From an uncultured Gemmatimonadales bacterium (GTDB taxonomy: Bacteria; Gemmatimonadota; Gemmatimonadetes; Gemmatimonadales; GWC2-71-9): a stretch of 64,000 bases of DNA. Shown piece after piece: positions 43,769-60,629 of this stretch; positions within the stretch are counted from its first letter, which is position 1; each line of letters starts with the position of its first letter. The DNA lies in NCBI GenBank assembly GCA_963748815.1, contig CAVVKJ010000010.1:96001-160000 (forward strand). Direction: 5' to 3'. The position numbers were made by a program, and so were the translations under genes. Under the pieces are notes generated by a model that worked only from the letters and a program-made list of their open reading frames with translations, made no database searches and was not told the origin of the DNA.

Positions 43769-44714
43769 AGCGATCGAGCTCCGCGTCGATCAGGGTGACC
43801 CGCTCTTCCGGCGTGCGGGGCGGGACTCGGCGAATCTCCTCGTACCGCGGCCGGGAGGGATCGCGGAAGAGGACGCCGAGATGGATGTGGTCGGTGGCGC
43901 TGGCGATGCGACGCGCGGCGTCGAGATCGTGCGGGTCGTGCCGCACCTGCGAGCGGTAGAGCTTCTCGAGTTCGGGGACCACGACGCCGTCGTCGTGGAT
44001 CAGCATCGCGATCTTGGCGGGGTCCTGCACCGCCGCCTGGTACACGGCCGGCGGAATAGATCGGGCAGCGCTGCAGGATCCGCACGAAACTCAGGCCCCG
44101 GTGGTGGTACGCGGCGCGCAGCGTGGCGTAGAGATGGGCCGGGACCCATTCGGCGGTCTGGGCCACGAACGAGGCGTTGGTCACGCCGAGGGAGACCGAC
44201 AGGGGATTCAGCGAGGGCAGCACGCCGCCCTGCGGCTCGTGTTGCTGGCGAATCCCTGCGGCGTGGTGGGCGAGGTCTGGTTCTTGGTCAGCGCGTAGAT
44301 GCCGTTGTCGAGCAGCAGCACGGTCAGGTTCACGTTGTAGCGAAGCGCGTGCACCCAGTGCGCGGCGCCGATCGAGGTGCAGTCGCCGTCGCCCATGACC
44401 ACGAACACCTGGAGGTCGGGGCGGGTGAGCTTGATGCCCGTCGCGACCGGCAGCGCCCGGCCGTGGATGCCGTGAAAGCCGTACGTCTTCAGGTAGTGCG
44501 GGAACCGGCTGGAACAGCCGATGCCGGAGACGAACACGGTCTGTTCGGGTGTCAGCTGCTCGGCGGTGAGCAGCTTCTGGACCGAGGCGAGGATGGAGTG
44601 GTCGCCGCAGCCGGGGCACCAGCGTGCGCGGGCGCCTTCGTAGTCATTGAGCTCGTAATGGGACTCGTGCTCGCCGGGCTGGAGCACCGGCAGGAGTCCG
44701 CAGGAGATCGTCAT
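43758..44714 (-). CDS. 2-oxoacid:ferredoxin oxidoreductase beta subunit (frameshifts ~44225, ~44050)
   Basis: WCPGCGD, SGIGCSSR, IHGR, GDGD, DNGIYALTKNQTSPT, LQRCP. Confidence 0.88.
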
Positions 44715-46607
44715 GCTGCACCTCCCACCGCGGTGCGCTCGCGGATGGCGTCCAGGATGGAACCGGGCCGGAGCGGCTCGCCCGGCACGCGGGTCCAGCA
44801 GTCGATGTCCACCAGGGTCGTGGCCCGGAGCACCCAGGCCAGCTGACCACGGCGGCGGTTCTCGTCCGTGATATACGGGTCGCCGGGGTCGTCGCTGTAG
44901 TTGATCTCGACGGTGCACACCTTGGCAAAGCGCGCAGAAGATGTCCTTGAGCCCCGGCTCGAGTGGCGAGAGGAAGCGGAGATGGACGGCGGAGACGCGG
45001 ATGCCCTCGCGCGCGCGCGCGGTCCACCGCCTCCTCGATGGCGCCCCTGGTGCTGCCCCATCCGACCAGGAGGAGGTCGCCCTCTGGTTCACCGTAGATG
45101 GGAGGAGGGCCGAGCAGCGATCTGCAGCACGGCGAGCTTGCGGCTCCGCATGGCGGATGCGCGCTGGTGAACGCCGGAGCTGTAGGCCACCTTGCTGCCC
45201 TCGTCGTGCGAGAGGCCGGTGACGGTGTAGGCGCCCCCCGGCTGGCCGGGGACGATCCGCTGGGAGAGGCCGGTTTCCGGATCCCACTGATAGGCCTTTC
45301 GGCCGTCCGCGACCGGCGCGAGGTCGATCGGTGCCGCCTGCCAGCTCGTGTCGGCTTTCGGGCGCGGGAAGGGGGTCACGCCGGTGGCAAGGTTGGCGTC
45401 CGAGAGCACCATGACCACGGTGCGGAACGCCTCGGCGATCCGCCGCGCGGTGACCATGATGTGGAAACATTCCTCGATGGTGGCCGGCGCCATCACGACA
45501 TGCGGGGCGTCGCCGGGGCTCGCGAAGAGTGCGGCGAGCAGATCGGACTGCTCCACCTTGGTCGGCAGGCCGGTGCTCGGTCCGCCGCGCTGCACGTCGA
45601 CCACCACCAGCGGAATCTCCGTCATCACGGCCAGCCCCAGGAACTCGGTCTTCAGGGCGAGGCCGGGGCCGGAGGTGACCGTGAGGGCCACCTTGCCGGC
45701 ATAGGACGCCCCGATGGCCACACCCACGGCGGCAATCTCGTCCTCGGCCTGATGGACGACGCCGCCAAACCGCTCGAACACCTCGCTCAGGTAGTGGGAG
45801 ACGGAGGTGGCCGGAGTGATGGGGTACATGGAGCAGAGTTCCATCCCCGCGGCGATCGCGCCCAGCCCGCAGCGCCTCGTTGCCGTTCATCACCACCAGC
45901 GCCTCGGTGATCGGCGGCGGCGTGACCTCGATCCGGAAGTCGATGTTGACCTCGGCCCAGCGGTAGCCGAGCTCGAGCAACGCGACGTTTTGCTCGTACA
46001 CCGCCTCGCTCTTCTTCCGGAAGGCGTGGGCGATCTGCTCCTTGATCCGCTCCATGTCCCGCCCGTAGATGCAGGCCAGCATCCCGAGGGCGAACATGTT
46101 CTTCCCCTTGCGGGGGTTGTCGACCAGCGTCAGGCACTCGACTTCCATCGGGACGGGAATGATCCGGTACTGCCGATGGGAGAGCTCCTCCATCGCGGCG
46201 TTCCAGGCGGCGCGAATGTCGGCGTCGTCGTGCGTGGCCCACTTGTCCTCGACCAGGAGCACGGCGTCGGGAGCCAGCGCATCGAGCCGGTGCCGCGCGA
46301 CGAGCACCTGTTCGTTGAAGGCCAGGACCAGGTTGGTGGCGTCGCCCCAGTTGGTGACGGGGCCGGCGCCGACGCGGATCCGGTACCCGCTGGCGCCCTC
46401 GGGCACGCGGGGCGGGGGCTGGATCTCGGCCGGGATGATCTCGACGGTCCAGACGCCGTTGCCCATCTTCGCGGAGACGGCGCCGAAGATCTGGCCGCAC
46501 TTCTGCGCCCCTTCACCGGAGTCGGAGACGATCTCGATGGTATGCTCGGCGAGGCGCGTGGCGGTCGGCGCGGAGGGCACGATGGTCGAAGAAGCGGTGG
46601 CGGTCAC
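44711..46607 (-). CDS. 2-oxoacid:ferredoxin oxidoreductase alpha subunit (gamma-alpha fusion, KorA-like), several frameshifts
   Basis: SGEGAQ, PAEI, KNMFALG, GNEA, YPITPAT, QAEDE, TSGPG, QRGGPSTGLPTK.EQSD, VEIN. Confidence 0.9.
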
Positions 46608-46620
46608 GGGTCGGTCTTCC

Positions 46621-46920
46621 TCAGGTGAGGGTGCCGAAGCGGCGTCGCTCGGCCAGCGGGTCGGGGGCGGCAGACGCTGGCGGCGAGGCCGGATGCCTGT
46701 CACGGCCCCGATTTTCCCGCAGCAGCGCCAGTTCGCCCAGCAGGTCCTCGTACACCTCGACGTCCAGCAGCACGCCGGCGGAGCGACCGTGCTGTGTCAG
46801 GATCACGGCGCGCTTGGTGTCGCGGATTTGCTGGAGGAACGCGGAGGCGTGCGCCCGGAATTCGGTGACCGGACGTACGTCTTGGGAGGGGCAGAGGCGG
46901 GCCAGTTTGCGGTTCGTCAT
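46621..46920 (-). CDS. Phd/YefM-family antitoxin-like DNA-binding protein, no adjacent toxin
   Basis: DVRPVTEFR..AS.FL.QI......VILTQHGRSAGVLL..E.YE. Confidence 0.85.
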   Translation of the reverse strand: MTNRKLARLCPSQDVRPVTEFRAHASAFLQQIRDTKRAVILTQHGRSAGVLLDVEVYEDLLGELALLRENRGRDRHPASPPASAAPDPLAERRRFGTLT

Positions 46921-49182: not shown

Positions 49183-49707
49183 ATGAACCGCCGATTTGGC
49201 TGGACTCACCTGTTCGCGATGGTGGCCGTGCTGGCCCTGCCTGGTCTTGCGCATGCCCAGGCCGCGACCGCACCCCAACCGCTCGTGATGACCGCCACGA
49301 ACCTGATGGCCGGGGACCAGCGCCACAAGGATGCCGGCGTCACCGACGCCCTCCTGCCCGGGGACGTGGTGCGTTACGGCCTGGTCTTCACCAACCTGAA
49401 CGCCGATTCCCTCCGCAACGTCCAGTTCACCAACCCCCTCCCCGGCGGCCTGCGGTACATGGCCGGCTCCGCCACGGCGGACCGGGGGGACGTGACGATC
49501 GACTTCTCGATCGACGGCGGCAAGAGCTGGTCGGTCCAGCCGATGATCGAGGTCGTCGTGGAGGGCAAGACGGTGCGGAAGCCCGCGCCGGTGTCGCAGT
49601 ACACCACCATCCGCTGGACGGTCAGCGGCTGGGTGCAGTCGAAGTCGAAGGTGACCGCCGAGTACAAGGCTGAACTGCCGGCGCCCTCGGGCGCCCCGGC
49701 TGAGTGA
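49183..49707 (+). CDS. Secreted stand-alone truncated DUF11-like protein (gene A; putative chaperone or cap)
   Basis: GAGGAG RBS, signal peptide AHA|Q; LPGDVVRY.L.FTN, TNPLP..LRY..GS, FSIDGG, IRW. Confidence 0.75.
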   Translation: MNRRFGWTHLFAMVAVLALPGLAHAQAATAPQPLVMTATNLMAGDQRHKDAGVTDALLPGDVVRYGLVFTNLNADSLRNVQFTNPLPGGLRYMAGSATADRGDVTIDFSIDGGKSWSVQPMIEVVVEGKTVRKPAPVSQYTTIRWTVSGWVQSKSKVTAEYKAELPAPSGAPAE

Positions 49708-49770
49708 TAGATGCACGCCCAGGGAACGTTTTCGATGTCACACCATACCACCCACAAGGAGTTGAACACC

Positions 49771-51012
49771 ATGCGCCGCACACCCTTCATCCAGAGGACC
49801 CTGTCGGTCCTCACCGGCCTGCTGTTGGCCGTCGCGGTTTCCGGGCTGTACGCCCAGAGCCCGACGCCCGAGGGCACGGTCATCACCAACACCTCGACGG
49901 TGACCTACACCGACGCCAACGGCAATACGTACACGCCGGTGACTGCGTCGGTCTCGGTGACCGTCGGCTTCGTCGCCGGGGTTGACCTGACCGGTGCCGT
50001 CTCGGTGAGCCCTGCCACGCCGAGCACGGGGAACGTCCTCTCGTTCACCTACCAGAACATCGGCAACGGTACGGACAGCATCTCCGTGTCCGATGTGAAC
50101 AGCCTGCCCGCCACGATGGTCATCACCGGCTACCAGATCAACGGCACGGGCACGATCTACACCAGCGTGGCGCTGCTCAACGCCGCGCTCGCCGCGATCC
50201 CCGTGGCGCAGAACGGCACGCTGGTCGTCAACGTGATCTACGACGTGCCGTCCGGCCGCGGTGGCCTGCCGTCCACGTACACCCTGACCGCCACCTCGCG
50301 GCGGGACCCGCTCGTGAACGACTCGGCGGCCACCATCGTCGCCCCGGCCCTCTCAGCCGCGGTCGCCGTCACGCCTGACGGCGGGCAGAACCTGCAGCAC
50401 CTGCCCAGCAACGGCACGAACTACTCCTTCACCTTCACCGTCCAGAACAACGGCAACGGCCCGGACGCCTTCAACCTCGTCGCGTCGAACACGGGCTCGT
50501 CGATCACCATCGTGTCGGTGAACGGCACCGCCGGTACCAGCGCGGCGCTCGGCAGCATCGCCCCAGGCGGCTCGGCGCCGGTCATCGTGGTCTACACGGT
50601 GCTCAACGTCGCGGCCGGCAGCACCGACGACGTGGTGCTCACCGCCACCTCGGTAGGCGCTCCCGGCGTATCCGATGCCGGCTTCGCCGACATCACCGTT
50701 ATCCGGCCCAGCCTGACGATGCTGAAGGAGGCCTTCCGCAGCGACCAGCTGACTCCCATCGGCGTGTCGGATGTCGTGCTGCCGGGTGAGTCGATTCAGT
50801 ACCGGATCACCGTGACCAATACGGGCACTGCCCCGTCCTCGGCGGTCCAGATCACCGACCCCCTGCCGGCGCAGCTCACCTATCAGAACGCCACCGGCGA
50901 CGTCGCCGGCTGGACCTTCGGGTTCGCGGGCAATACCGTGACCGCCGACCTGGCGGGCACGCTCGCGGTTGGTGCGAGCAGGTTCATCTGGGTGCAAGCC
51001 CAGGTGAATTGA
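49771..51012 (+). CDS. Secreted DUF11/Ig-repeat protein (gene B; putative major fibre subunit)
   Basis: AAGGAG RBS, signal LYA|Q; N-terminal GTVITNTSTVTY; two N.GNG.D Ig domains; C-terminal truncated DUF11. Confidence 0.8.
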   Translation: MRRTPFIQRTLSVLTGLLLAVAVSGLYAQSPTPEGTVITNTSTVTYTDANGNTYTPVTASVSVTVGFVAGVDLTGAVSVSPATPSTGNVLSFTYQNIGNGTDSISVSDVNSLPATMVITGYQINGTGTIYTSVALLNAALAAIPVAQNGTLVVNVIYDVPSGRGGLPSTYTLTATSRRDPLVNDSAATIVAPALSAAVAVTPDGGQNLQHLPSNGTNYSFTFTVQNNGNGPDAFNLVASNTGSSITIVSVNGTAGTSAALGSIAPGGSAPVIVVYTVLNVAAGSTDDVVLTATSVGAPGVSDAGFADITVIRPSLTMLKEAFRSDQLTPIGVSDVVLPGESIQYRITVTNTGTAPSSAVQITDPLPAQLTYQNATGDVAGWTFGFAGNTVTADLAGTLAVGASRFIWVQAQVN

Positions 51013-51030: not shown

Positions 51031-54000
51031 ATGAAGTTCTTTAGCGCGGCGCATACGGCGACAGGCCGTTCGAGGCTCCATCCTGCCCATTGGGCAGGGT
51101 GGGGTCTTGGCGTGCTTGCCCTGTTCGTGTCCGTCGCGAACCTGCGCGCCCAGGCCCTGCCGGCTGGGACCCAGATCTCGAACGTCGCGCAGGTGTCCTG
51201 GCAGGACGAAAACGGGCTGGCCTTTTCGACCGGCTCGAACACGGTGGTGCTGACCGTTGGCCAGGTCGCGGGCGTCGATGTCGAACCGCCCCGTTCCTCG
51301 GTCAGCGACCCCGGCACGACCGTGTGGTTTGCGCATACCCTGCAGAACATCGGCAACGGGACGGACAGCTTCACCGTTGCCGCGCGCTCCAGCGCCGGCT
51401 GGCCGGTCCGCGTCTACCAGGACGCCAACGGCAATGGAGCGCTCGATCCAGGAGAACAGCTCGTCGCGGGACCGATCCCGCTGGTGGCGGGCGCCACCGC
51501 CAACCTGCTGCTGGCCGTCGATGTCCCCGGCGTGGCCACGGTCCGCGGCGTCATCGACACCCTGTCGCTGACTGGCACCTCCGAATTCGATCCGGCCGTG
51601 AGTGACAGCGTCGCCGACCAGCTCCAGATCCGGGATGTCGGCATCGCGGTGACCCTGGCCAAGACGGTCGACCGGCCCACGGCGTCCCCGGGTGACATTC
51701 TCTCCTATACTATTGGGTATCAGGCGACCGGCCCCGATTCGGCCGCCAACTTCCGGATTGCCGACCCGATCCCGGTCGGCGCGGTCTACCTCCCCGGCAG
51801 CATCCGGCTCAACGGCGCGCCGCTCACCGACGCCGCCGGCGACGACGCCGGCACCTTCGATGCGCTCAACAATCAGGTCGTCCTTGTCCTTGGAAGCGTT
51901 GCCGGGGGATCCGCCGGCACCGTCGGCTTCCAGGTCCGTGTCGGTGCGCTGCAGACGATCACCAACGTCGCGGGCGCCACCTACCAGACCGTGGCTGGCA
52001 CCGACTCCGTGGCCTCCAATCCCGTGCAGACCGGAGTGGTCGCGCCGGAGGCCACGCTCCTCAAGACCCTGATCAGCCCGCCGACGGCCCGGGTGGGTGA
52101 GAGCGTCCAGTACCAGGTCGCGTGGGGGAATCCCTCGCCGTCGGCCGTCGTGCTGGGCGCCGTCGTGACCGACACGATCCCGGCCGGCCTTGACTACGCC
52201 TCGTCGCTGCCGGCGGCGGTGGTGGCGGGGCGGGTGTTGCAGTGGTCGCTCGGCGACCTGGCGGCCGGAAGCACCGGCCAGATTCAGTTGACCCTGACGG
52301 TGGCCGCGAGCGTCACCGACACACAGCGCGTCGTCAATACCGCCACGCTCACCTCGCTCAACGCGCCGGAGCAGCGCTCCACCGCGTCGGAACTCCTGCT
52401 GATCGGGCCTCCGTCGCAGCAGCTCTCCCTGACGAAGACCGCCGACGTCATCGAGGTGAGCCTCGGCGAGACGGCCCCCTTCACCCTGGTGGTCGGCAAC
52501 CAGGGGACGGTGGACCTCACCGACATCCAGATTCACGATCAGCTTCCCGAGGGCACCCGGTATGCGCGGGGCACCGCGACCGGCGTGGACTCGGTCCGGG
52601 CGAACGGCCGGGACCTGACCTTCTTCATTGCCGGTCCGCTGGCGCCCGGCGCCGACCACACGGTGCACTACGTGATTGCGGTCGTCTCGGCCTCGTCCAC
52701 CACGCTGCAGAACACCGCCCTGGCCGTGGCGGGCGGCGTGGTCCGCTCCGCCGAGGCCACGGCCTCGCTCCGCGTGAGCAGCGCGTGGGCCATGCAGGAC
52801 CGGGCCGTCATCGGCAAGGTCTGGGTCGACGTCAACAACAACGGCATCCAGGAATTCGGCGAGGGCGGGATGCCGGGCGTCGACATCTGGACCGAAGACG
52901 GCGACATCGCGACCACCGATGCTGACGGCCGCTTCTCCTTCCGGAACATGCAGCCCGGCACCCAGCACGCCTTCCGGCCTGACTTCGGCACCATTCCGGC
53001 CGGGTACCAGATCGCCGACAAGGGCGTGGAGCGCCTGCTGGTGACCCGCGACGCCACCGGCTGGACCACACCCCGCGTGGATTTCCGCCTGGTGCCGAAC
53101 GCGGCGCGCATGTCGGGGGTGCGCCTTCCCCTCGGATGGAGCCTTGCCGCCCGGACCATCGGAGTCCCGACCGATACGGCGACGGCCACGACGCGACTGC
53201 AGCAGCGCGACTCCGTCGCCAGGAACGGCTACCTCGACATTCCGCCGCTCGAGATCCGGAACATCACCTTCGCCTCCAACAAGTACGCCCTCTCCCGGAC
53301 GGCGACCGGCATGCTGGACAGCCTGGCGCCCTGGTTCAACGCCCATCCCGACCTGTCCGTGATCATCCGCGGGCACACCGACGCGGTCGGCTCCGTGGAT
53401 CACAACCGGATGTTGTCGGAGGAGCGCGCCAAGGCGGTCATCCGGCAGTTGGCGGCGGCTGGCGTCGACTCGACCCGGCTCATCCCGATCGCGTTCGGCT
53501 CGACCAGCCCGGTCGCCGGCAACCAGACCGCCGAGGGGCGGGCCCTGAATCGCCGGGTCGAGCTGCGGATCGTGTACGCGACCCAGATTCGCGCTGTGAG
53601 CGATCAGATCGAGTCGCTCAGCGTCGCGCCTCCGGTGGAACAGCGGGAGATCGAGGTGGGGATTCAGAACAGCTACGGAATCCCGCTTTCCGACCTCACC
53701 GTCGCCTTCCCGGTCGCGCTCGACTCCGTCGAGCTGCTGATCAACGACTCCGTGGTGGGCCGGGCTGCCGGGACGATCGTGGCGCTGCCGATCATTCCCG
53801 CGCACGCCAGGTTCCTCCTGCGCGGCTGGACCGCGCGCGCGGATGCCTCGGCGTCGGCGGAACTGTCGCTGGCAGGCACGCCGCTGAGCCGCCTGAACGT
53901 TTCGCTCGCCGACTCGACCGCGCGCGTGGCGGCGGTGACGGCACCGGTCATTGCGGCCGACAGCCTCCCGGACATGGCGGCCCTCCCGGCCGGCGGCGAG

Positions 54001-57000
54001 GTGGCGATCACGCTCTCCGCTCCCCAGGCGGGTTGGCAGAAGCAGGCCACCTTCGCCCTGCCGACGGGGTGGCGGACGGAGGCGGACAGCACCGCCGCCC
54101 CGGCCACCGTGCAGAATGGCAACGGTGGCGAGGCCCTCACCTGGAACTTCTCCGAGGCACCGACCGGCCCGATCGAACTGCGGATGGTCCCGGCTGGTGC
54201 CGTGGCGCCGAGTGCGCCGGCCCGGATCGAGCCGCTCCGCCCCTCCGCGGCGAGGCTCGCCGAGCAGCAGAATGCGTTCCTGGCCGGGCCCGGCGTCGAG
54301 ATCGTCAGCCCGACCGACGGGACGATCCTGCGGAGCGACCGTGTGTACATCGGTGTGCGCGGTGAACCGGGCGCGCCGGTGACGCTGTTCGACGGCGACT
54401 CCGTGCTGGCGCAGGCCCAGCTCCGCCCGGACGGCGTCCAGGACTTCATTGCGGTGGCGCTCGCCGTCGGGCCGCATCGGCTCCGGGTGCGCATGAAGAA
54501 CTCCTGGTCGAAGGAGCGCTGGGACAGCGTGTCGGTGCATGTCACGGGCGCGCCGGCGTCGTTCGCGGCGGACCAGCGGCGCGTCGCGCTGGTGGCCGAC
54601 GGCCAGACGATCGCCACGGCGCGGGTCCGGGTGCTGGACGCCTGGGGCGTGCCGGTGGTCAACCGGCCGCAGGTCACCGCCGTTGCGGACGGCGCCGAGG
54701 TGGTGAACACCGATGCGGATCGCTCGTCGGTCGGGGTGCAGGTGACGGTCGACGAGGGAGGCTGGCTGACCATCCTCCTGCGCCCCGGACATTCGGTCGG
54801 GGAGGGAAGCCTCCGCCTTTCGTACGCGGCGCTCCACGGCGAATTGCCCCTCGACATTCTCCCCGCCGTCCAGCCGCTGCTGCTGACGGGTTCGGGCCTC
54901 GTCGGGATCGGCGCCAGCTACTCCGCCTACGGCGCGGTGACGGCGCGCGGCCATCTCGACGATCGCACCTCGTTCCTGGTGAGCTACGACTCCCGGCGGC
55001 TCGACGCCGGCACCGATGCCTTCGCGCGCAGCGCGGACCCGCTGGCCGAGGCGCAGTACCCGATCCTGGGCGACGCGAGCCTCTACCGGACGATGAGCGC
55101 CTCGACCTACCAGCTCTCGGCGCGCGTCGAGCGCGGCTACGACTGGCTCGCCTTCGGCGACATCGGGATCAACGGGGGCCTCGGTTCGGAACTGGGGCTC
55201 AGCACCTACCGGCGGGCGTTGCCGGGCCTCGCCGCCCGCTATACGACCGGGCCGGTGGTGTGGCAGGGCTTCGGCGCGGTGACCACCCAGTTGCTGCAGC
55301 AGACGCAGATTCGCGGGTCCGGCATTTCCGGGCCCTACCAGTTCGGCAGCACCATTCGCTTCGGCACCGAGCAGGTGACGGTGGAGACCCGGGAGCGGAA
55401 CAACGCGGAGCATATCCTCAGCCGCGAGGTGCTCACCCGGTTCGTGGATTACGAAATCGACTACGAAACCGGCTCGCTGCTCCTGAAGCGGCCGGTGCCC
55501 GCGGCCGACGCCTCCGGCAATCCCGTCTACCTCGTGGTGCTCTACGAGGCGGAAAGCGGCGGCTCGAGCAGTGAAGTCTGGGGTCTGCGCGCCACCGTGG
55601 ATGGCACCCAGTGGATCCGAAGCACCCTGTTCGACTCTGCACGCGTCGGCGCCACCTTCGTGCACGAGAGTCCGGATGCCGGCGGCCACCAGCTCCTCGG
55701 CGCCGACCTGCGCCTGGTCGAGCAGCACGGGCTGGCGCTGGGCGGCGAGGTGTCGTTCTCCGAGGGCCCTGACTCCAGCGGCACGGCCACGGCGCTGGCG
55801 GGTTCCTATGGGTTCCTCGGCGGGTCAGGGCTGCTCTTCGCCAAGTGGCTGGGCGTGAGTCGCGAGTTCGGGAATCCGGCGAACCCGGCGCTGCAGGGCG
55901 GCACCAGCGCCATCGACCTCGGCGCACAGTACAAGCGGGATGGGCGCGAGTTCCAGCTCGGGTACAACTGGCAGCGATTCGACATACAGGACCAGGAGCG
56001 GCAGGAGGCGCGGGCCAGCGTCCTTCAGCCGATCGGTGCCGAGGTGCAGGTGCTCGGCGCGCTGACGAGCCACCGCTTCCAGGGGCCCGACCTGGACGAC
56101 GAGCTCTGGGGCGCCGAGGCGAAGCTCAGCTGGAAGCCGGAAGGACGACTCGGAATGTGGACCGAGGGCCGGGTCGACCTGGGAGGCGACGGCGCGTCGC
56201 AGAGCCCCAGTTTCGTTGGCGTCGGCGCGTCGTTCGCCGTCACGAGCGCAGTGTCGCTCGAGGCGCGGCACCGGCGCGCCTTCCTCCCCGGCGACTCGGG
56301 GAGCTACAGCGTCACCGACATCGGAATCAAGACTCGGATCGGCGCCGGGACCGAGGCCTACGGCTCGTACCAGCTGGCCGGCGTTTCCGGGGCCGACAAC
56401 GCCGCCCTCGTCGGCCTGCGGAACCGACTCCAGGTCGGGTCGAGCTGGACGCTCAACACGCTGTTCGAGCGCCGGGTCGGGCTCAACGCAGCGGGCACCC
56501 TCGATCCGGTGCGGGCGGCTCCGTTCCTCCAGCAGGAAGAGGACTACTGGTCGGCCGGCCTCGGGGCGGAGTACCTTCCGCTGCTGGCGCCCTACCGGCT
56601 GAGCATGCGCGCCGAATTCAAGGACGGAGAAATCAACAGCAACCGGCTGCTGGCCCTCGCGGGCGACATCTCGCTGAACTCCGGGCTTGCCCTGCTGACC
56701 CGGCAGAATCTGCTCAAGACCGAGCAGACCAACGCGGACACCGCGGTTGTCGGGCATGCCTACGGGTCGTTGTGGGGCCTCGCGTTCCGGCCGACCCGCA
56801 GCAACAAGTTCAACATCCTGGCCAAGTATCAGTGGATCAACGTGCTGAATCCCAACCGGGGCAGCGTGCTGGGAGGCTCAGGCGAGGAGGGCCGGAACAT
56901 CCTGGCGCTCGAGGCCATCTACCAGCCGTCGGCCGCGAGTGAGATCACCGCCCGGATCGCCAGCCGCCGGAGCACCTCCAGCATCGTGGCCTCGGACGGC

Positions 57001-57328
57001 ACCAGCGTGGCGCTCAAGTCGCTGGCCGACTTCGTGGGATTGCGGGGGAGCCTGGTCTTGCGGCCGCAGCTGGAGGCCCGGCTCGACGGGCGGCTGCTGC
57101 TGGAGCGGACCAGCGGGGAGTCGCGCTATCAGATCTCGCCACAGCTCGCCTTCCTGCCGCAGCAGACGCTCGAAGTCGTCGACCGGGTACCGGTTCGGCG
57201 ACTTGCAGGACCCCGACTTTGCCTCCGATGGCGGCGACGGGTGGTTCGTGACCTTCAGCGCCCGGGTAAGCGAGCAGACCATCGCGTCGGCCGCCGACTT
57301 CTGGCGCCAGCGCTTCGGTGGAAAGTAG
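51031..57328 (+). CDS. Giant (~2,100 aa) DUF11x3 + SdrD_B-like + OmpA_C + Ig + C-terminal beta-barrel outer-membrane protein (gene C; frameshift ~57180)
   Basis: Three K..D..N DUF11 repeats, GKVWVD.NNNG.Q..GE.G, GHTD..GS..N..LS..RA / NRRVE; long amphipathic-strand C-terminus ending GYRF...WFVTFSAR in a second frame. Confidence 0.8.
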
Positions 57329-60300
57329 ATGCCCATGCCACGCTTCCAGCACCCGATCCGGCACCGGCGATCCCCCACCAGGGGCGGCTCGATCGTGCGC
57401 GCCATCGTGCTGGCCGTGTCGCTGGCGTGTGCCTGGCCGGCCATCGCGCAGGCGCAGCTCCAGATGTACGGCACCAACGCGAACGGCATCTACCGGATCA
57501 ACAGCGCGACGGGTGCGGGGGTCCAGCTCTACACCGGCACACCGTTCACCGGGGGATACGCCGCGGGCGCCGCCCAGCGGCCCAGTGACGGCATGCTCTT
57601 CTTCGTGGTCGGCAGCGGAGGCAACGACGCCCTCTATCGCTGGGACCCCGCCACACCCGCCACGGCGCCGGTCTTCGTGGGCAACACCGGTGTGCCGTAC
57701 ATGCCCCGGTTGGGATTCAGCACGTCAGGCGTCCTGTACGGCGTGGACATGGGGACCGACAACATCTACCTGCTGAACCAGACGACCGGCGCCGGCACGG
57801 CCACGGGCGCGGCGCTCAGCGGCGGGCCGGCGGGAAATACCGGCGGTGACCTCGCCTTCCACCCTGCCGACGGGTACATCTACATCCCCACCGGTACCGG
57901 CAACCCCTACACGCTCTACCGTGTGCCCGTGACGGGTGGCGCATTGACGAGCGTGTCCACCTTCTCCGGCATGCCGTGCGATCCGTCGGGTGCGGCCTTC
58001 GACGCCGCGGGCACGCTGTTCATCCAGTGTTCCACCTCGAACAACATCTACACCATTCCGCTGACCGGCGGCGCGGCCACGCTGGTGGGCGTCGGTCCGC
58101 GCGGGGTTGCAGGACCTGGCCTCCGTCCCGGTGCCGCCCCCTACCGTCACGATGGGGTTCGCGCCCGGCACCGTGGGAGCGCCCGGCGCGACGTCGGTCC
58201 TGACCATCACGCTCACCAACTCCGCCGCCGTGCAGCAGCGCGGGGCCGGCTTCACCCTCGGCTATCCGGCCAACCTGGTGAACGCCCCGACGCCCGCCGT
58301 GGCCACGACCTGCGGCGGCCCCGCCACCGCCGCCGCCGGCGGCGGAAGCGTGGCGCTTGCCGGCGGGACGATCCCCGCCGGCGGGAGCTGCACCATCTCG
58401 GTGACCGTGACGGCCACCTCGACCGGCACCTACGTCGTCACCCTGCCGGCGGGAGGCCTGCTGACGGTGATCGGCGCCAATGTTTCCCCAGCCTCCGCGA
58501 CCCTCACGGTCGGCGCGGGGTTTTCCGGGACGGTGTTCGAGGACGCGAATTATGGAGGCGGCGCCGGGAGGAGCCTCGCGGCGTCGGGCGGGGTGGGCGT
58601 GGCGGGGGCGCGAGTGGAGCTCTACAACGGGGCAGGGGCCTACGTCGGCTTCACGACCACCAACGCCACCGGCGCCTACAACTGGCCGAACCTCGCCGCC
58701 GGCAACTACACGGTCCGGGTGGTCAACCTCACGGTCCCGTCGGCGCGCGCCGGGTATGTCGCCGCTCTGATTCCGGTTCAGACGTTCCGGGTCAACGCCA
58801 CCAGCGGCTCGGCGGTGGCGGTGACCGATCGCGTCGGCGGCCAGGACCCGAACGTGGCCGACGCCGCCAACGGCGGGTCCGGGACCACGATGAACACCGC
58901 CACCGGCCTCTTTACCGCCGGCGTCACCGGGCAGGCCCAGTCCATCGCCACGGTCACCATCAGCGGAGCGGGCAATGTCACCGATGTGGACTTCGGGTTC
59001 AGCTTTGACGTCATGGTCAACCGGAACACCACGGGGCAGGGAAGCCTCCGGCAGGTGATGACCAATGCCAACGCCCTTTCGAACGCCGGGCTGGCGCAGG
59101 CAGGGCGGACGGCCGGTACCGAGAACGTGGTCTTCATGCTCGCGAATGGCACCGCCTTCCCGGGCACCAATGCCGGGTACCCGAACCAGTTCTCCGGCGG
59201 CGTGGCCACCATCAACCTGACCAGCGTCCTCCCGACCATCACCTCCGCGCTGGTGCTCGACGCGCAGACCCAGCCGGGGTGGTCAGGCGTGCCGATCGTC
59301 GAGCTCAATGGCAGCGGCGCGGGCGCGGGCGGCGACGGGTTCACCATCAGCTCCGCCAACAACGTGGTGAGCGGGTTCGTGATCAACCGCTTCGGCGACC
59401 AGGGTGTGATCCTCACCGGCGCGGGAGCCACCGGCAACCTGGTGGCCGGCAACTACATCGGCGTGAACGCCTCGGGCACCGCCGCCTCCGCCAATGGCAG
59501 CTATGGCATCCAGATTCTCGGCGGCGCCAGCAACAACACGATCGGCGGCACCACCGCCGCCGTGCGGAACGTCATTGCCGGCAACGCCTCCGCCGGCATC
59601 CGGATCCGCGATGCCGCCAGCACCGGCAACGTGATCCTCGGCAACTACATCGGACTGAATGCCGCCGGCACCGGGGCGCTGGGCAACGCGGCCGAGGGCG
59701 TGCTGATCAACAACAGTGCCGGCGACAATACGATCGGCGGGACCGGGGCGGGAGCCGGGAACCGGATTTGGTACAACGCGGGAGACGGTGTCGTCGTGAC
59801 GTCGAATGCCGCGGACGGCAACGCCATCCTCGGCAATTCCATCGCGTCGAACACGGGGCTGGGCATTGACCTGGGGAACAACGGCGTCACCGTCAACAAT
59901 GGGTCGAAGTCCAACAATCAGCCCAACGACGGCATGGATTACCCTGTCTTCACGTCGGCCTCGGTGAACGGCGCCCTCCTGACCGTGGCGGGCTACGTCG
60001 GAAGCGCGGCCGGTCAGTCCACATTCGGTGGGGCCCGGGTCGAGATCTTCCGGTCGGACAACGACCCCACCGGGTATGGCGAGGGGCCGGTCTATCTCGG
60101 CTTCCTCACCGCCGCGGCGAACGGCAACTTCAGCGGCTCCGTGTCGCTGGGCGGAGTGGTCGGGGGAGACCGGATCACCGGCACCGCCACCGACGCCGCC
60201 GGCAACACCTCGGAATTCGGGCTCAACCTCGTGGTGGCTGCCCCGCCGCCGGTGCTGGCGCTCACCAACATGGTGAGCCCGGGCGGCGCCCAGATGCCGG

Positions 60301-60629
60301 GCACCGACCTCACCTATACCATCATGTTCGTCAACAACGGGGGCACGGCAGCCACGGGCGTGGTCCTGGTGGATTCGCTGACGACGAGGGTGGACTTCAA
60401 GATCGGCTCGGTGACCTCGAATCTCGGCACCACCGGCCTCACGGTGGCGGTGTCCTATTCGAACAACAACGGCACGAGCTATGTGTATGTGCCGGTGAGC
60501 GGTGGTGGCGGGGCGCCCGCAGGGTACGACCGCAACGTGACCAACGTCCGGTGGGCCTTCACCGGGAGCCTGAGCGCCACCGCGCCGAACAACGCCGGGA
60601 GCGTCGGCGTCATTGGGCGAATACGCTAG
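57329..60629 (+). CDS. Large secreted adhesin-like protein: beta-propeller + Ig + SdrD_B-like + beta-helix + terminal truncated DUF11 (gene D; frameshift ~58100)
   Basis: Signal AQA|Q; GDLAF/LYR propeller blades; GSLRQ..TNAN, GN.IG.NA.GT.A..N beta-helix repeats, GNTSEF; PGTDLTYTI. Confidence 0.8.

Follow-up and report, generated by a model that had tools for sequence, protein, structure and literature searches.

We analysed a stretch of 64,000 nucleotides from an uncultured Gemmatimonadales bacterium (the window), in which four neighbouring genes on the forward strand, here called A, B, C and D, encode secreted proteins with CLIPPER (DUF11) domains, several of which lack their last beta-hairpin. 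Our main subject is gene B. An earlier note on this DNA had described B as carrying an isopeptide triad split across its two ends, with the Asn in an N-terminal donor segment, the Lys and the Asp near the C-terminus, and two immunoglobulin (Ig)-like domains in between. That description holds: all three codons are in frame at the positions given, both N.GNG.D motifs are found, in all-beta domains, and an alignment to the domain profile divides the protein in the same way. The features of B are as follows.

49771..51012, plus strand: gene B, 413 residues; signal peptide, donor hairpin, two Ig-like domains, truncated CLIPPER acceptor
49771..49857, plus strand: signal peptide, residues 1-29 (MRR...LLLAVAVSGLYAQ), with cleavage after YAQ as judged from the sequence alone
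49858..49968, plus strand: donor beta-hairpin, residues 30-66, carrying Asn40; strands 37-44 and 57-64
49969..50355, plus strand: first Ig-like domain, approximately residues 67-195; motif QNIGNGTD (N96-D102)
50356..50700, plus strand: second Ig-like domain, approximately residues 196-310; motif QNNGNGPD (N226-D232)
50701..51009, plus strand: acceptor, residues 311-413, a CLIPPER/DUF11 domain without its last hairpin, carrying Lys319 and Asp363

The open reading frame (ORF) of B spans 49711-51012, and its probable start is the ATG at 49771, which gives a protein of 413 residues with a Sec-type signal peptide. Residue numbers count from this ATG; counted from 49711 they would each be higher by 20. 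Asn40 is then the AAC at 49888-49890, within GTVITNTST, Lys319 is the AAG at 50725-50727, within LTMLKEA, and Asp363 is the GAC at 50857-50859, within ITDPLP. Position 49855, where the earlier note had begun the gene, is the codon of Gln29, the last residue of the putative signal peptide; A28 and Q29 are at least 90% conserved, and in an AlphaFold2 model residues 6-27 form a helix with a low predicted local distance difference test score (pLDDT). In the first Ig-like domain N96, G98, N99, G100 and D102 are invariant among 68 sequences. Compared with its homologues, B is intact and full-length. A sequence search of the PDB with B returned a single match, to a phage tail protein, which is not meaningful (E value 0.18).

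The DUF11 family was renamed CLIPPER in a 2025 survey, and the part of the survey consulted describes a member, 9IFR, with an autocatalytic intramolecular bond between Lys715 and Asn806 for which Asp748 is catalytic (PMC12617251). That part deals with intramolecular bonds, and with intermolecular ones as background only (PMC12617251). The last domain of B matches the family clearly: the Pfam model DUF11 (PF01345) scores 48.0 bits on residues 336-412, against a gathering score of 24.6, and TIGR01451 scores 45.8 bits against a cut-off of 24. The DUF11 match covers only profile positions 13-84 of 114. For a finer alignment we built a CLIPPER profile of 124 columns, using 143 complete domains taken from gene C and from homologues of that gene. 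On this profile the C-terminal domain of B occupies columns 1-87 (hhalign E value 2.9e-15), Lys falling on Lys, and there the protein stops; its N-terminal segment aligns to columns 88-119 (hhalign E value 1.2e-3), with Asn40 on the conserved Asn. As a control, the first Ig domain of B gave an hhalign E value of 0.1 against the same profile. By hmmsearch the donor scores 8.5 bits at positions 94-119 of the hidden Markov model, which 8 of 1000 shuffled donors equalled. The hairpin match, weak by itself, gains weight because it is located exactly where the acceptor ends. The mere presence of Asn, Lys and Asp in a protein is uninformative, and it is their position on the profile that lifts the triad of B above chance. 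Set against the definition of the family, B has no complete contiguous CLIPPER domain of seven to nine strands that includes the Asn strand, while Lys (in the first strand), Asp and Asn stand at the CLIPPER triad positions, the Asn being supplied by the N-terminal hairpin. Going by these alignments, Asn40, Lys319 and Asp363 occupy the positions of the Lys-Asp-Asn isopeptide triad of DUF11/CLIPPER; the C-terminus of B is a CLIPPER domain that ends just short of the last beta-hairpin, and its mature N-terminus is that hairpin.

The triad is conserved, which the earlier note had asked to be checked. A database search with B found 1110 proteins at E values of at most 0.001, and the best 120 are all at least 56% identical to it. 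Among these best 120 of the 1110, Asn and Lys are each present in 120 of 120 and Asp in 116, the other four having Asn at that position; all of them end at the same column, none reaching past the last residue of B. The picture is similar for more distant relatives, represented by clusters at 50% identity: Asn is found in 68 of 73, Lys in 71 of 73 and Asp in 72 of 73. The 73 are the representatives of 370-500 residues among the best 150, the other 77 having been set aside as fragments or giant repeat proteins. In the B genes that we collected from genomic loci, 65 of 69 have the full N-K-D triad, and 67 of 69 have the Asn. The hairpin, TPEGTVITNTATVSFTDANGNTY, ranks among the most conserved stretches of B.

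Structure predictions agree with the domain layout. The AlphaFold2 monomer model of B (68-row alignment, mean pLDDT 89, predicted template modelling score (pTM) 0.62) has four parts, namely the hairpin, two all-beta domains with the N.GNG.D motifs, and a seven-stranded all-beta domain at the end (315-412). Confidence is lower in or beside the linker between the Ig domains, where pLDDT falls to 66-72 (residues 201-220). A Foldseek search with the whole model retrieved only generic multi-Ig proteins such as integrins and adhesins, with template modelling (TM) scores of 0.2-0.4, and does not resolve the place of the hairpin. We also folded the acceptor (308-413) and the hairpin (29-70) as separate chains, together with three controls. 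The pair reached a median interaction prediction score from aligned errors (ipSAE) of 0.87 and the best of the three controls 0.00; in a benchmark of the ipSAE mark used here, 116 of 157 solved complexes and 2 of 215 mismatched pairs passed it. The runs share at least 98% of contacts, and the partner has a pLDDT of at least 85. The predicted interface is formed by residues 312-321 (which include Lys319), 354-366 (Asp363), 38-49 (Asn40) and 57-68. Asn40 and Lys319 have Tyr344 and residue 61 as common predicted contacts, and Asp363 contacts residue 43. The score cannot distinguish a hairpin that docks in cis from one that docks in trans.

The neighbouring genes carry further pieces of the same domain.

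49183..49707, plus strand: gene A, small secreted protein with a signal peptide (start MNRRF); one CLIPPER-like domain without the last hairpin; acceptor-only
51031..57325, plus strand: gene C, base subunit; signal peptide, donor hairpin, Ig-like domain, three complete CLIPPER domains, SdrD_B, OmpA-like domain, long all-beta C-terminus
51157-51261, plus strand: donor hairpin of C (LPAGTQISNVAQVSW...), resembling that of B; Asn51 at 51181-51183
51637-52776, plus strand: the three complete CLIPPER domains of C, each with its own Lys, Asp and Asn
about 53266-53553, plus strand: OmpA-like domain of C, with approximately 1200 residues further downstream
57329..60629, plus strand: gene D (X in other loci), secreted and adhesin-like, with DUF6923, DUF7933 and SdrD_B; C-terminal truncated CLIPPER acceptor

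Gene A matches DUF11 weakly in Pfam (19.5 bits) and TIGR01451 with 35.9 bits. Against the CLIPPER template it aligns to columns 12-92 of 124 by hhalign, stopping at the same column as B, and it has no hairpin. In the window A has Ala at the Lys position and Asn at the Asp position; in its family (74 homologues and the window's own copy, 75 in all) Ala replaces the Lys in 68 and the Asp is present in 45. The A homologues also have a near-invariant Asn two residues past the Lys position, on the same strand (70/75, motif VTAEN; around 49270 in the window).

Gene C is donor-only, with one surplus hairpin and no open acceptor. The Asn position of this hairpin varies among 54 homologues (N in 33, S in 10, A in 5, D in 2, and T, L, Q and G in one each; the window has N), and because of this variation the link to the base is probably covalent in some lineages only. 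A one-base frameshift interrupts C near 57175-57180: frame 0 runs from ...QQTLEVVDRVPV into Arg-rich nonsense up to 57588, and frame +1 continues past it as ...TGYRFGDLQDPDF...FGGK to a stop at 57325. The homologue in locus L019 is unbroken (...LEVVTGYRFGDL...), and since the window's C carries the frameshift we modelled the C-terminal 860 residues from this closest relative. The AlphaFold2 model (48-row alignment, pLDDT 77, pTM 0.67) is all-beta, with approximately 40 long consecutive strands, and Foldseek matches it to large outer-membrane barrels only (LptD, Deinococcus SlpA, MtrB, TonB-dependent receptors, SprA and FimD; TM 0.15-0.28). The model thus supports assigning the C-terminus to the class of large outer-membrane barrels and to no specific family in it, the Foldseek matches being to many unrelated large barrels at low TM. 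A PDB sequence search with the C-terminal 1148 residues of C gave nothing meaningful (E value 0.19), and a protein Atlas search with the C-terminus gave clusters of outer-membrane proteins, which are leads only. With a predicted barrel and an OmpA-like peptidoglycan-binding domain, C looks like a base that is anchored in the envelope.

Gene D is likewise frameshifted, near 58100 (about 58085-58140): DUF6923 lies in the frame of 57329, and DUF7933, SdrD_B and the acceptor lie in the frame of 58107. Its homologue in L019 is a single ORF that matches both parts across the junction. An 831-residue ORF at 44208-46703 on the minus strand has plausible ends, which resemble those of a 2-oxoacid:ferredoxin oxidoreductase, and an Arg/Gly/Pro-rich middle that is apparently out of frame, so that it may contain further assembly indels. 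In the window D lies downstream of C, while its X counterparts in other loci are mostly upstream of A. It is acceptor-only: it has no hairpin, its acceptor has Asn at the Lys position, and the Asp is kept. The D/X acceptor aligns to columns 3-86 of the CLIPPER template, and its Lys is present in 30 of 53 and missing in 23. The 51 X ORFs range from 214 to 2101 residues and have very different N-terminal parts, and they share one end residue in the truncated CLIPPER domain (...F.ARIR/K). Nine further ORFs (108-1385 residues), several of them cut by contig ends or frameshifts, end in an Ig2 domain and acceptor of the B type with Lys and Asp kept (...FWIRVRVK). On their sequences, the X ORFs and these nine look like interchangeable cargo for one docking module. 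We also considered a dedicated covalent pair in which the C donor enters the D/X acceptor, and rejected it: Asn and Lys do not co-occur in the two partners and even tend the other way (counts 9, 12, 12 and 5; Fisher p = 0.11). In the window the acceptor of B is the only open acceptor with a Lys, and the hairpins that bear an Asn are those of B and C.

We found 78 related loci, all in Gemmatimonadota, with A-B-C as the conserved block. All four gene classes (A, B, C and X) are present in 38 of the 78, and most of the remaining loci are broken by contig ends. In a sample of 301 Gemmatimonadota genomes B has a match at E values of at most 1e-30 in 21, one per genome; among these 21 are 19 of the 125 genomes of the window's own family, the window's genome not included. 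It looks like a patchy accessory locus.

How the hairpins are used is indicated by gene C, which evolution has cut and joined at the boundary where B is open. Across its first CLIPPER domain C is contiguous in 50 of the 78 loci and split into two genes in 10, and could be assigned to neither state in 17. The split lies exactly at the boundary between acceptor and donor, and both products have a signal peptide. The first, C1 (approximately 305 residues), consists of a signal peptide, a hairpin, an Ig domain and a CLIPPER domain that ends ...FQVRVG, followed by a stop; the second, C2, has its own signal peptide and the Asn hairpin as its mature N-terminus (e.g., ...LQAQ|QTLINTAGATYE). Because C2 has this extra signal peptide, a sequencing frameshift is ruled out as the cause of the split. 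In the window the equivalents of C1 and C2 are linked by four residues (...FQVRVGALQTITNVAG...). In the split loci C1 keeps the Lys in 10 of 10 and the Asp in 10 of 10, and C2 keeps the Asn in 8 of 10. A quick maximum-likelihood tree of B has well-supported branches on which the split state cannot be explained with fewer than three changes.

The converse event is also found. In two natural B-C1 fusions, P0122 (672 residues) and ORF 1208-3271 of L033 (687 residues), the hairpin of C lies directly behind the last strand of B, with no signal peptide in between. In both fusions the Lys of the fused domain has become Ala or Gln and its Asn Thr or Ser; its Asp stays, and the N-terminal Asn of B is kept. 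The bond thus seems to be dispensable in these fusions once the backbone joins the pieces. A third candidate, P0271 (864 residues), was rejected, since it retains the signal peptide of C in mid-protein and is most likely due to a lost stop or is a gene-call artefact. No B-B or A-B fusion was seen among the three longer relatives of B that we found, which is weak evidence. Together, fission and fusion at the same boundary indicate that a hairpin in this system completes the domain of a different polypeptide, and they also give an order as read from the gene sequences: the donor of C or C1 fills the acceptor of B, and the donor of C2 fills the acceptor of C1. C1 has the same layout of donor followed by acceptor as B, with one Ig domain between them instead of two, and according to the fusion evidence both of its ends are used in trans.

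On balance we lean towards the following reading: B would be a Sec-exported subunit of a fibre that is assembled by strand complementation and locked by isopeptide bonds, with A or D at the tip, copies of B in between and C at the base. The acceptor of B is missing its last two strands but still has Lys319, the reactive residue, and Asp363, the catalytic one; the N-terminal hairpin would supply Asn40. The hairpin of one polypeptide would insert into the open domain of another and complete its fold, bringing the Asn beside Lys and Asp. Lys and Asn would then react spontaneously to an amide, releasing ammonia, just as they do within an intact CLIPPER domain. Having acceptors only, A and D would make tips or cargo; B, with both donor and acceptor, would join to itself in one or more copies; and the N-terminal hairpin of C would occupy the last B acceptor, the OmpA-like domain and the C-terminal barrel anchoring the assembly in the envelope. 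The observations underneath are the split and tiling of the domain, the conservation of the triad, the fission and fusion at its boundary and the predicted interface; from these we infer the covalent bond, the joining of B to B, the order of assembly, and, the D/X proteins being adhesin-like, the location at the surface and the exit through the barrel of C.

The joining of B to B is suggested mainly by the loci in which the other partners lack a reactive residue. B keeps its Lys in 20 of 20 loci whose C donor is without Asn. Four of them (L025, L054, L055 and L068) have the full B triad although the C donor has no Asn and the D/X acceptor no Lys; in a fifth such locus, L020, B has Asp at the Asn position. 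The only partner for the Lys of B that is always present is the Asn of B itself, so B probably bonds to B. A head-to-tail chain is the simplest reading of this, because hairpins act in trans elsewhere in the system and the acceptor of B takes the B-like hairpin of C. The earlier note had proposed an extended rod in which the Lys-Asn bond cross-links B molecules into a chain. Its intermolecular use of the hairpin gains support from the donor-only and acceptor-only neighbours, the fission of C, the B-C1 fusions and the fold controls, whereas its chain of B alone gives way to what is probably a hetero-assembly.

Several points weigh against this reading. Many links in the system are not able to be covalent, given a C donor without Asn in 21 of 54, a D/X acceptor without Lys in 23 of 53 and the Ala of A in 68 of 75. 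The joint invariance of Asn and Lys in B fits an intramolecular bond and an intermolecular one equally well, and in the monomer model the hairpin is ordered (pLDDT 82-93), as it would be if it docked in its own acceptor. The three residues of the triad do come together in one region of the predicted complex, but a direct contact of Lys319 with Asn40 is not among the best pairs listed. Because the two chains are halves of one domain, the high interface score may also echo intact Ig or CLIPPER folds. C and D are frameshifted in the window, so the locus is decaying or its assembly contains indel errors. Finally, the evidence is all computational, and every sequence comes from a metagenome-assembled genome.

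Three other explanations have to be weighed against this one. The first is that B is a single-copy adaptor and not a polymer, with a tip (A or D), one B and the base C, each hairpin having one dedicated acceptor. The fusion evidence covers only the links from B acceptor to C donor and from C1 acceptor to C2 donor, the three longer relatives include no B-B tandem, and each of the 21 genomes with B has a single match, all of which would suit an adaptor. We nevertheless think it unlikely. The Lys and Asn of B stay invariant even where the C donor has no Asn and the D/X acceptor no Lys, and A, the other candidate for a tip, usually offers Ala at its Lys position; moreover, B and C have similar donors (P-x-G-T-x-I-x-N-x-A), and the acceptor of B should accordingly also take the donor of B.

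The second is that B closes on itself: with its Ig domains side by side in a U, the hairpin would fold into the acceptor of the same molecule, and the Lys-Asn bond would staple the monomer, which would then resemble the nested domains of Gram-positive tip pilins. The two Ig domains in between would bring the ends together, and the dip in confidence at 201-220 lies near the boundary between them (approximately residue 195), where the U-turn would sit. The order of the hairpin in the monomer model and the joint invariance of Asn and Lys suit a bond in cis equally. There is also a precedent, in that GBS104-like_Ig (PDB 3TXA) is described in the part of the survey consulted as a CnaA-like isopeptide domain formed from two distant segments of one chain (PMC12617251). 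However, if B closed on itself, nothing would pair with the hairpin of C or with the open acceptors of A and D. Nor does self-closure account for the B-C1 fusions, which place the hairpin of C behind the acceptor of B, lose the Lys and Asn of exactly that domain and keep the N-terminal Asn of B; and C1, with the same layout and a single Ig domain, uses both ends in trans on the fusion evidence. We regard it as improbable.

The last is that strands are complemented with no covalent bond, the conserved Asn, Lys and Asp serving only in packing or in hydrogen bonds. It draws on the several donor and acceptor pairs that lack Asn or Lys and presumably still assemble, but seems very doubtful given that the three residues of B match the positions of the bond solved in 9IFR, that the triad is far more conserved in B than in its partners, where the residues vary freely, and that the fused domain, whose backbone already joins the pieces, has lost both its Lys and its Asn.

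The preferred reading, a fibre of complemented and covalently locked subunits, can be compared with known systems. B is of the same sequence family as the CLIPPER/DUF11 domain of 9IFR, with the Lys and Asp positions alike and the Asn on the penultimate strand. It differs in that the domains of B, A, D and C1 end short of the Asn hairpin, which is found instead at the N-terminus of B, C or C2, and the bond would join two polypeptides or two chain ends instead of stapling a contiguous domain. SpyTag/SpyCatcher, SnoopTag/SnoopCatcher and isopeptag are man-made splits of Gram-positive isopeptide domains, in which one reactive residue lies on a short piece, the other lies with the catalytic acid on a larger piece, and the two reconstitute the domain and bond spontaneously; in SnoopTag it is a Lys-Asn bond. 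The earlier note had likened B to such tags. SpyTag and SnoopTag are CnaB-type, single-stranded and man-made, whereas the B system would be natural and CnaA-like, with a two-stranded hairpin, and arranged head-to-tail in secreted subunits.

A functional parallel is BsaA, a TasA-like matrix fibre protein of C. perfringens, in which, according to the portion of the preprint available, an N-terminal segment takes part in donor-strand exchange and is then locked by an Asn-Lys bond (bioRxiv 10.1101/2024.11.04.621531). This 'exchange and lock' is there backed by N35, K74 and E56 mutants (bioRxiv 10.1101/2024.11.04.621531). An N-terminal donor that enters the next subunit and a spontaneous Asn-Lys bond with an acidic catalyst are the features it would share with the B system. 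It differs in its TasA-like fold, its Gram-positive host and its Glu catalyst, and has neither an outer-membrane base nor acceptor-only tips. The Pfam scan of B found no TasA-like (peptidase M73) family; the acid of B is Asp and its fold is CLIPPER. The archaeal thread Saci_0406 is described, in the excerpt consulted, as assembled by head-to-tail donor-strand complementation with a proposed isopeptide link, in which the N-terminal amine of Asp24 is bonded to Asn57 of subunit n+2, and as having an adjacent gene for a putative cap (PMC9715654). Apart from being archaeal, the thread differs from the B system in having no Lys-Asp-Asn triad and no CLIPPER domain. In the paper on haloarchaeal tafi the words 'isopeptide' and 'covalent' do not occur.

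Chaperone-usher pili have tip, shaft and terminator roles and an outer-membrane barrel. Like the B system as we read it, they have an incomplete Ig fold that the neighbouring subunit on the basal side completes with its N-terminal extension, as summarized in the excerpt cited (PMC9715654). In the B system, by contrast, a hairpin serves as donor and takes the place of the last two strands of a C-terminal domain, the lock is likely to be covalent, and the base subunit itself contains the barrel. We scanned A, B, C, both frames of D and seven neighbouring ORFs with Pfam and found neither a PapD-like chaperone nor an usher (PF00577), and the barrel model of C matches FimD weakly (TM 0.23-0.25), as one among many barrels. 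In sortase-assembled pili the links between subunits are made by sortase at LPXTG. The likeness here is in the covalent isopeptide links and the Ig-like pilins with isopeptide triads; such pili are mentioned in PMC12617251 and PMC9715654. B ends ...FIWVQAQVN, without LPXTG, and no sortase family turned up in the Pfam scans of the ORFs listed above. As a class, the system has what defines a donor-strand-complemented fibre, an incomplete Ig-like fold and a terminal extension that completes such a fold in another subunit; that this holds for B with B is what we infer. Our literature search, in which subscription journals were thinly covered, found no published split CLIPPER/DUF11 fibre and no description of this operon.

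Taken together, the products of B and its neighbouring genes probably snap together into a covalently locked surface fibre. Beyond that, we can offer only tentatively the larger picture of a natural, modular tag-and-catcher system in Gemmatimonadota, which would use no chaperone, sortase or ATP, lock itself by a spontaneous Lys-Asn bond, extrude the fibre through the barrel of the base as its own usher, and carry exchangeable adhesins (to approximately 2100 residues) as tips, with gene boundaries that have shifted while the assembled structure stayed the same.

Natural spontaneous isopeptide bonds between subunits are known from few fibres, our literature search having given the archaeal threads and BsaA. 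Here a split of the superglue type was apparently made by evolution, in a diderm phylum and in the most widespread family of isopeptide domains, and the B system would be a natural counterpart of the engineered protein 'superglues'. The locus supplies natural pairs of hairpin and acceptor (those of B, C and C1/C2), with and without the reactive residues, together with natural controls that are fused or split. Such pairs are material for studies of specificity and bond formation, and may yield mutually orthogonal ligation pairs. If our reading is true, it would also add, for cells of the Gram-negative type, a route of fibre assembly that needs neither chaperone-usher nor sortase, and an operon conserved in soil Gemmatimonadota would for the first time have a function assigned to it.

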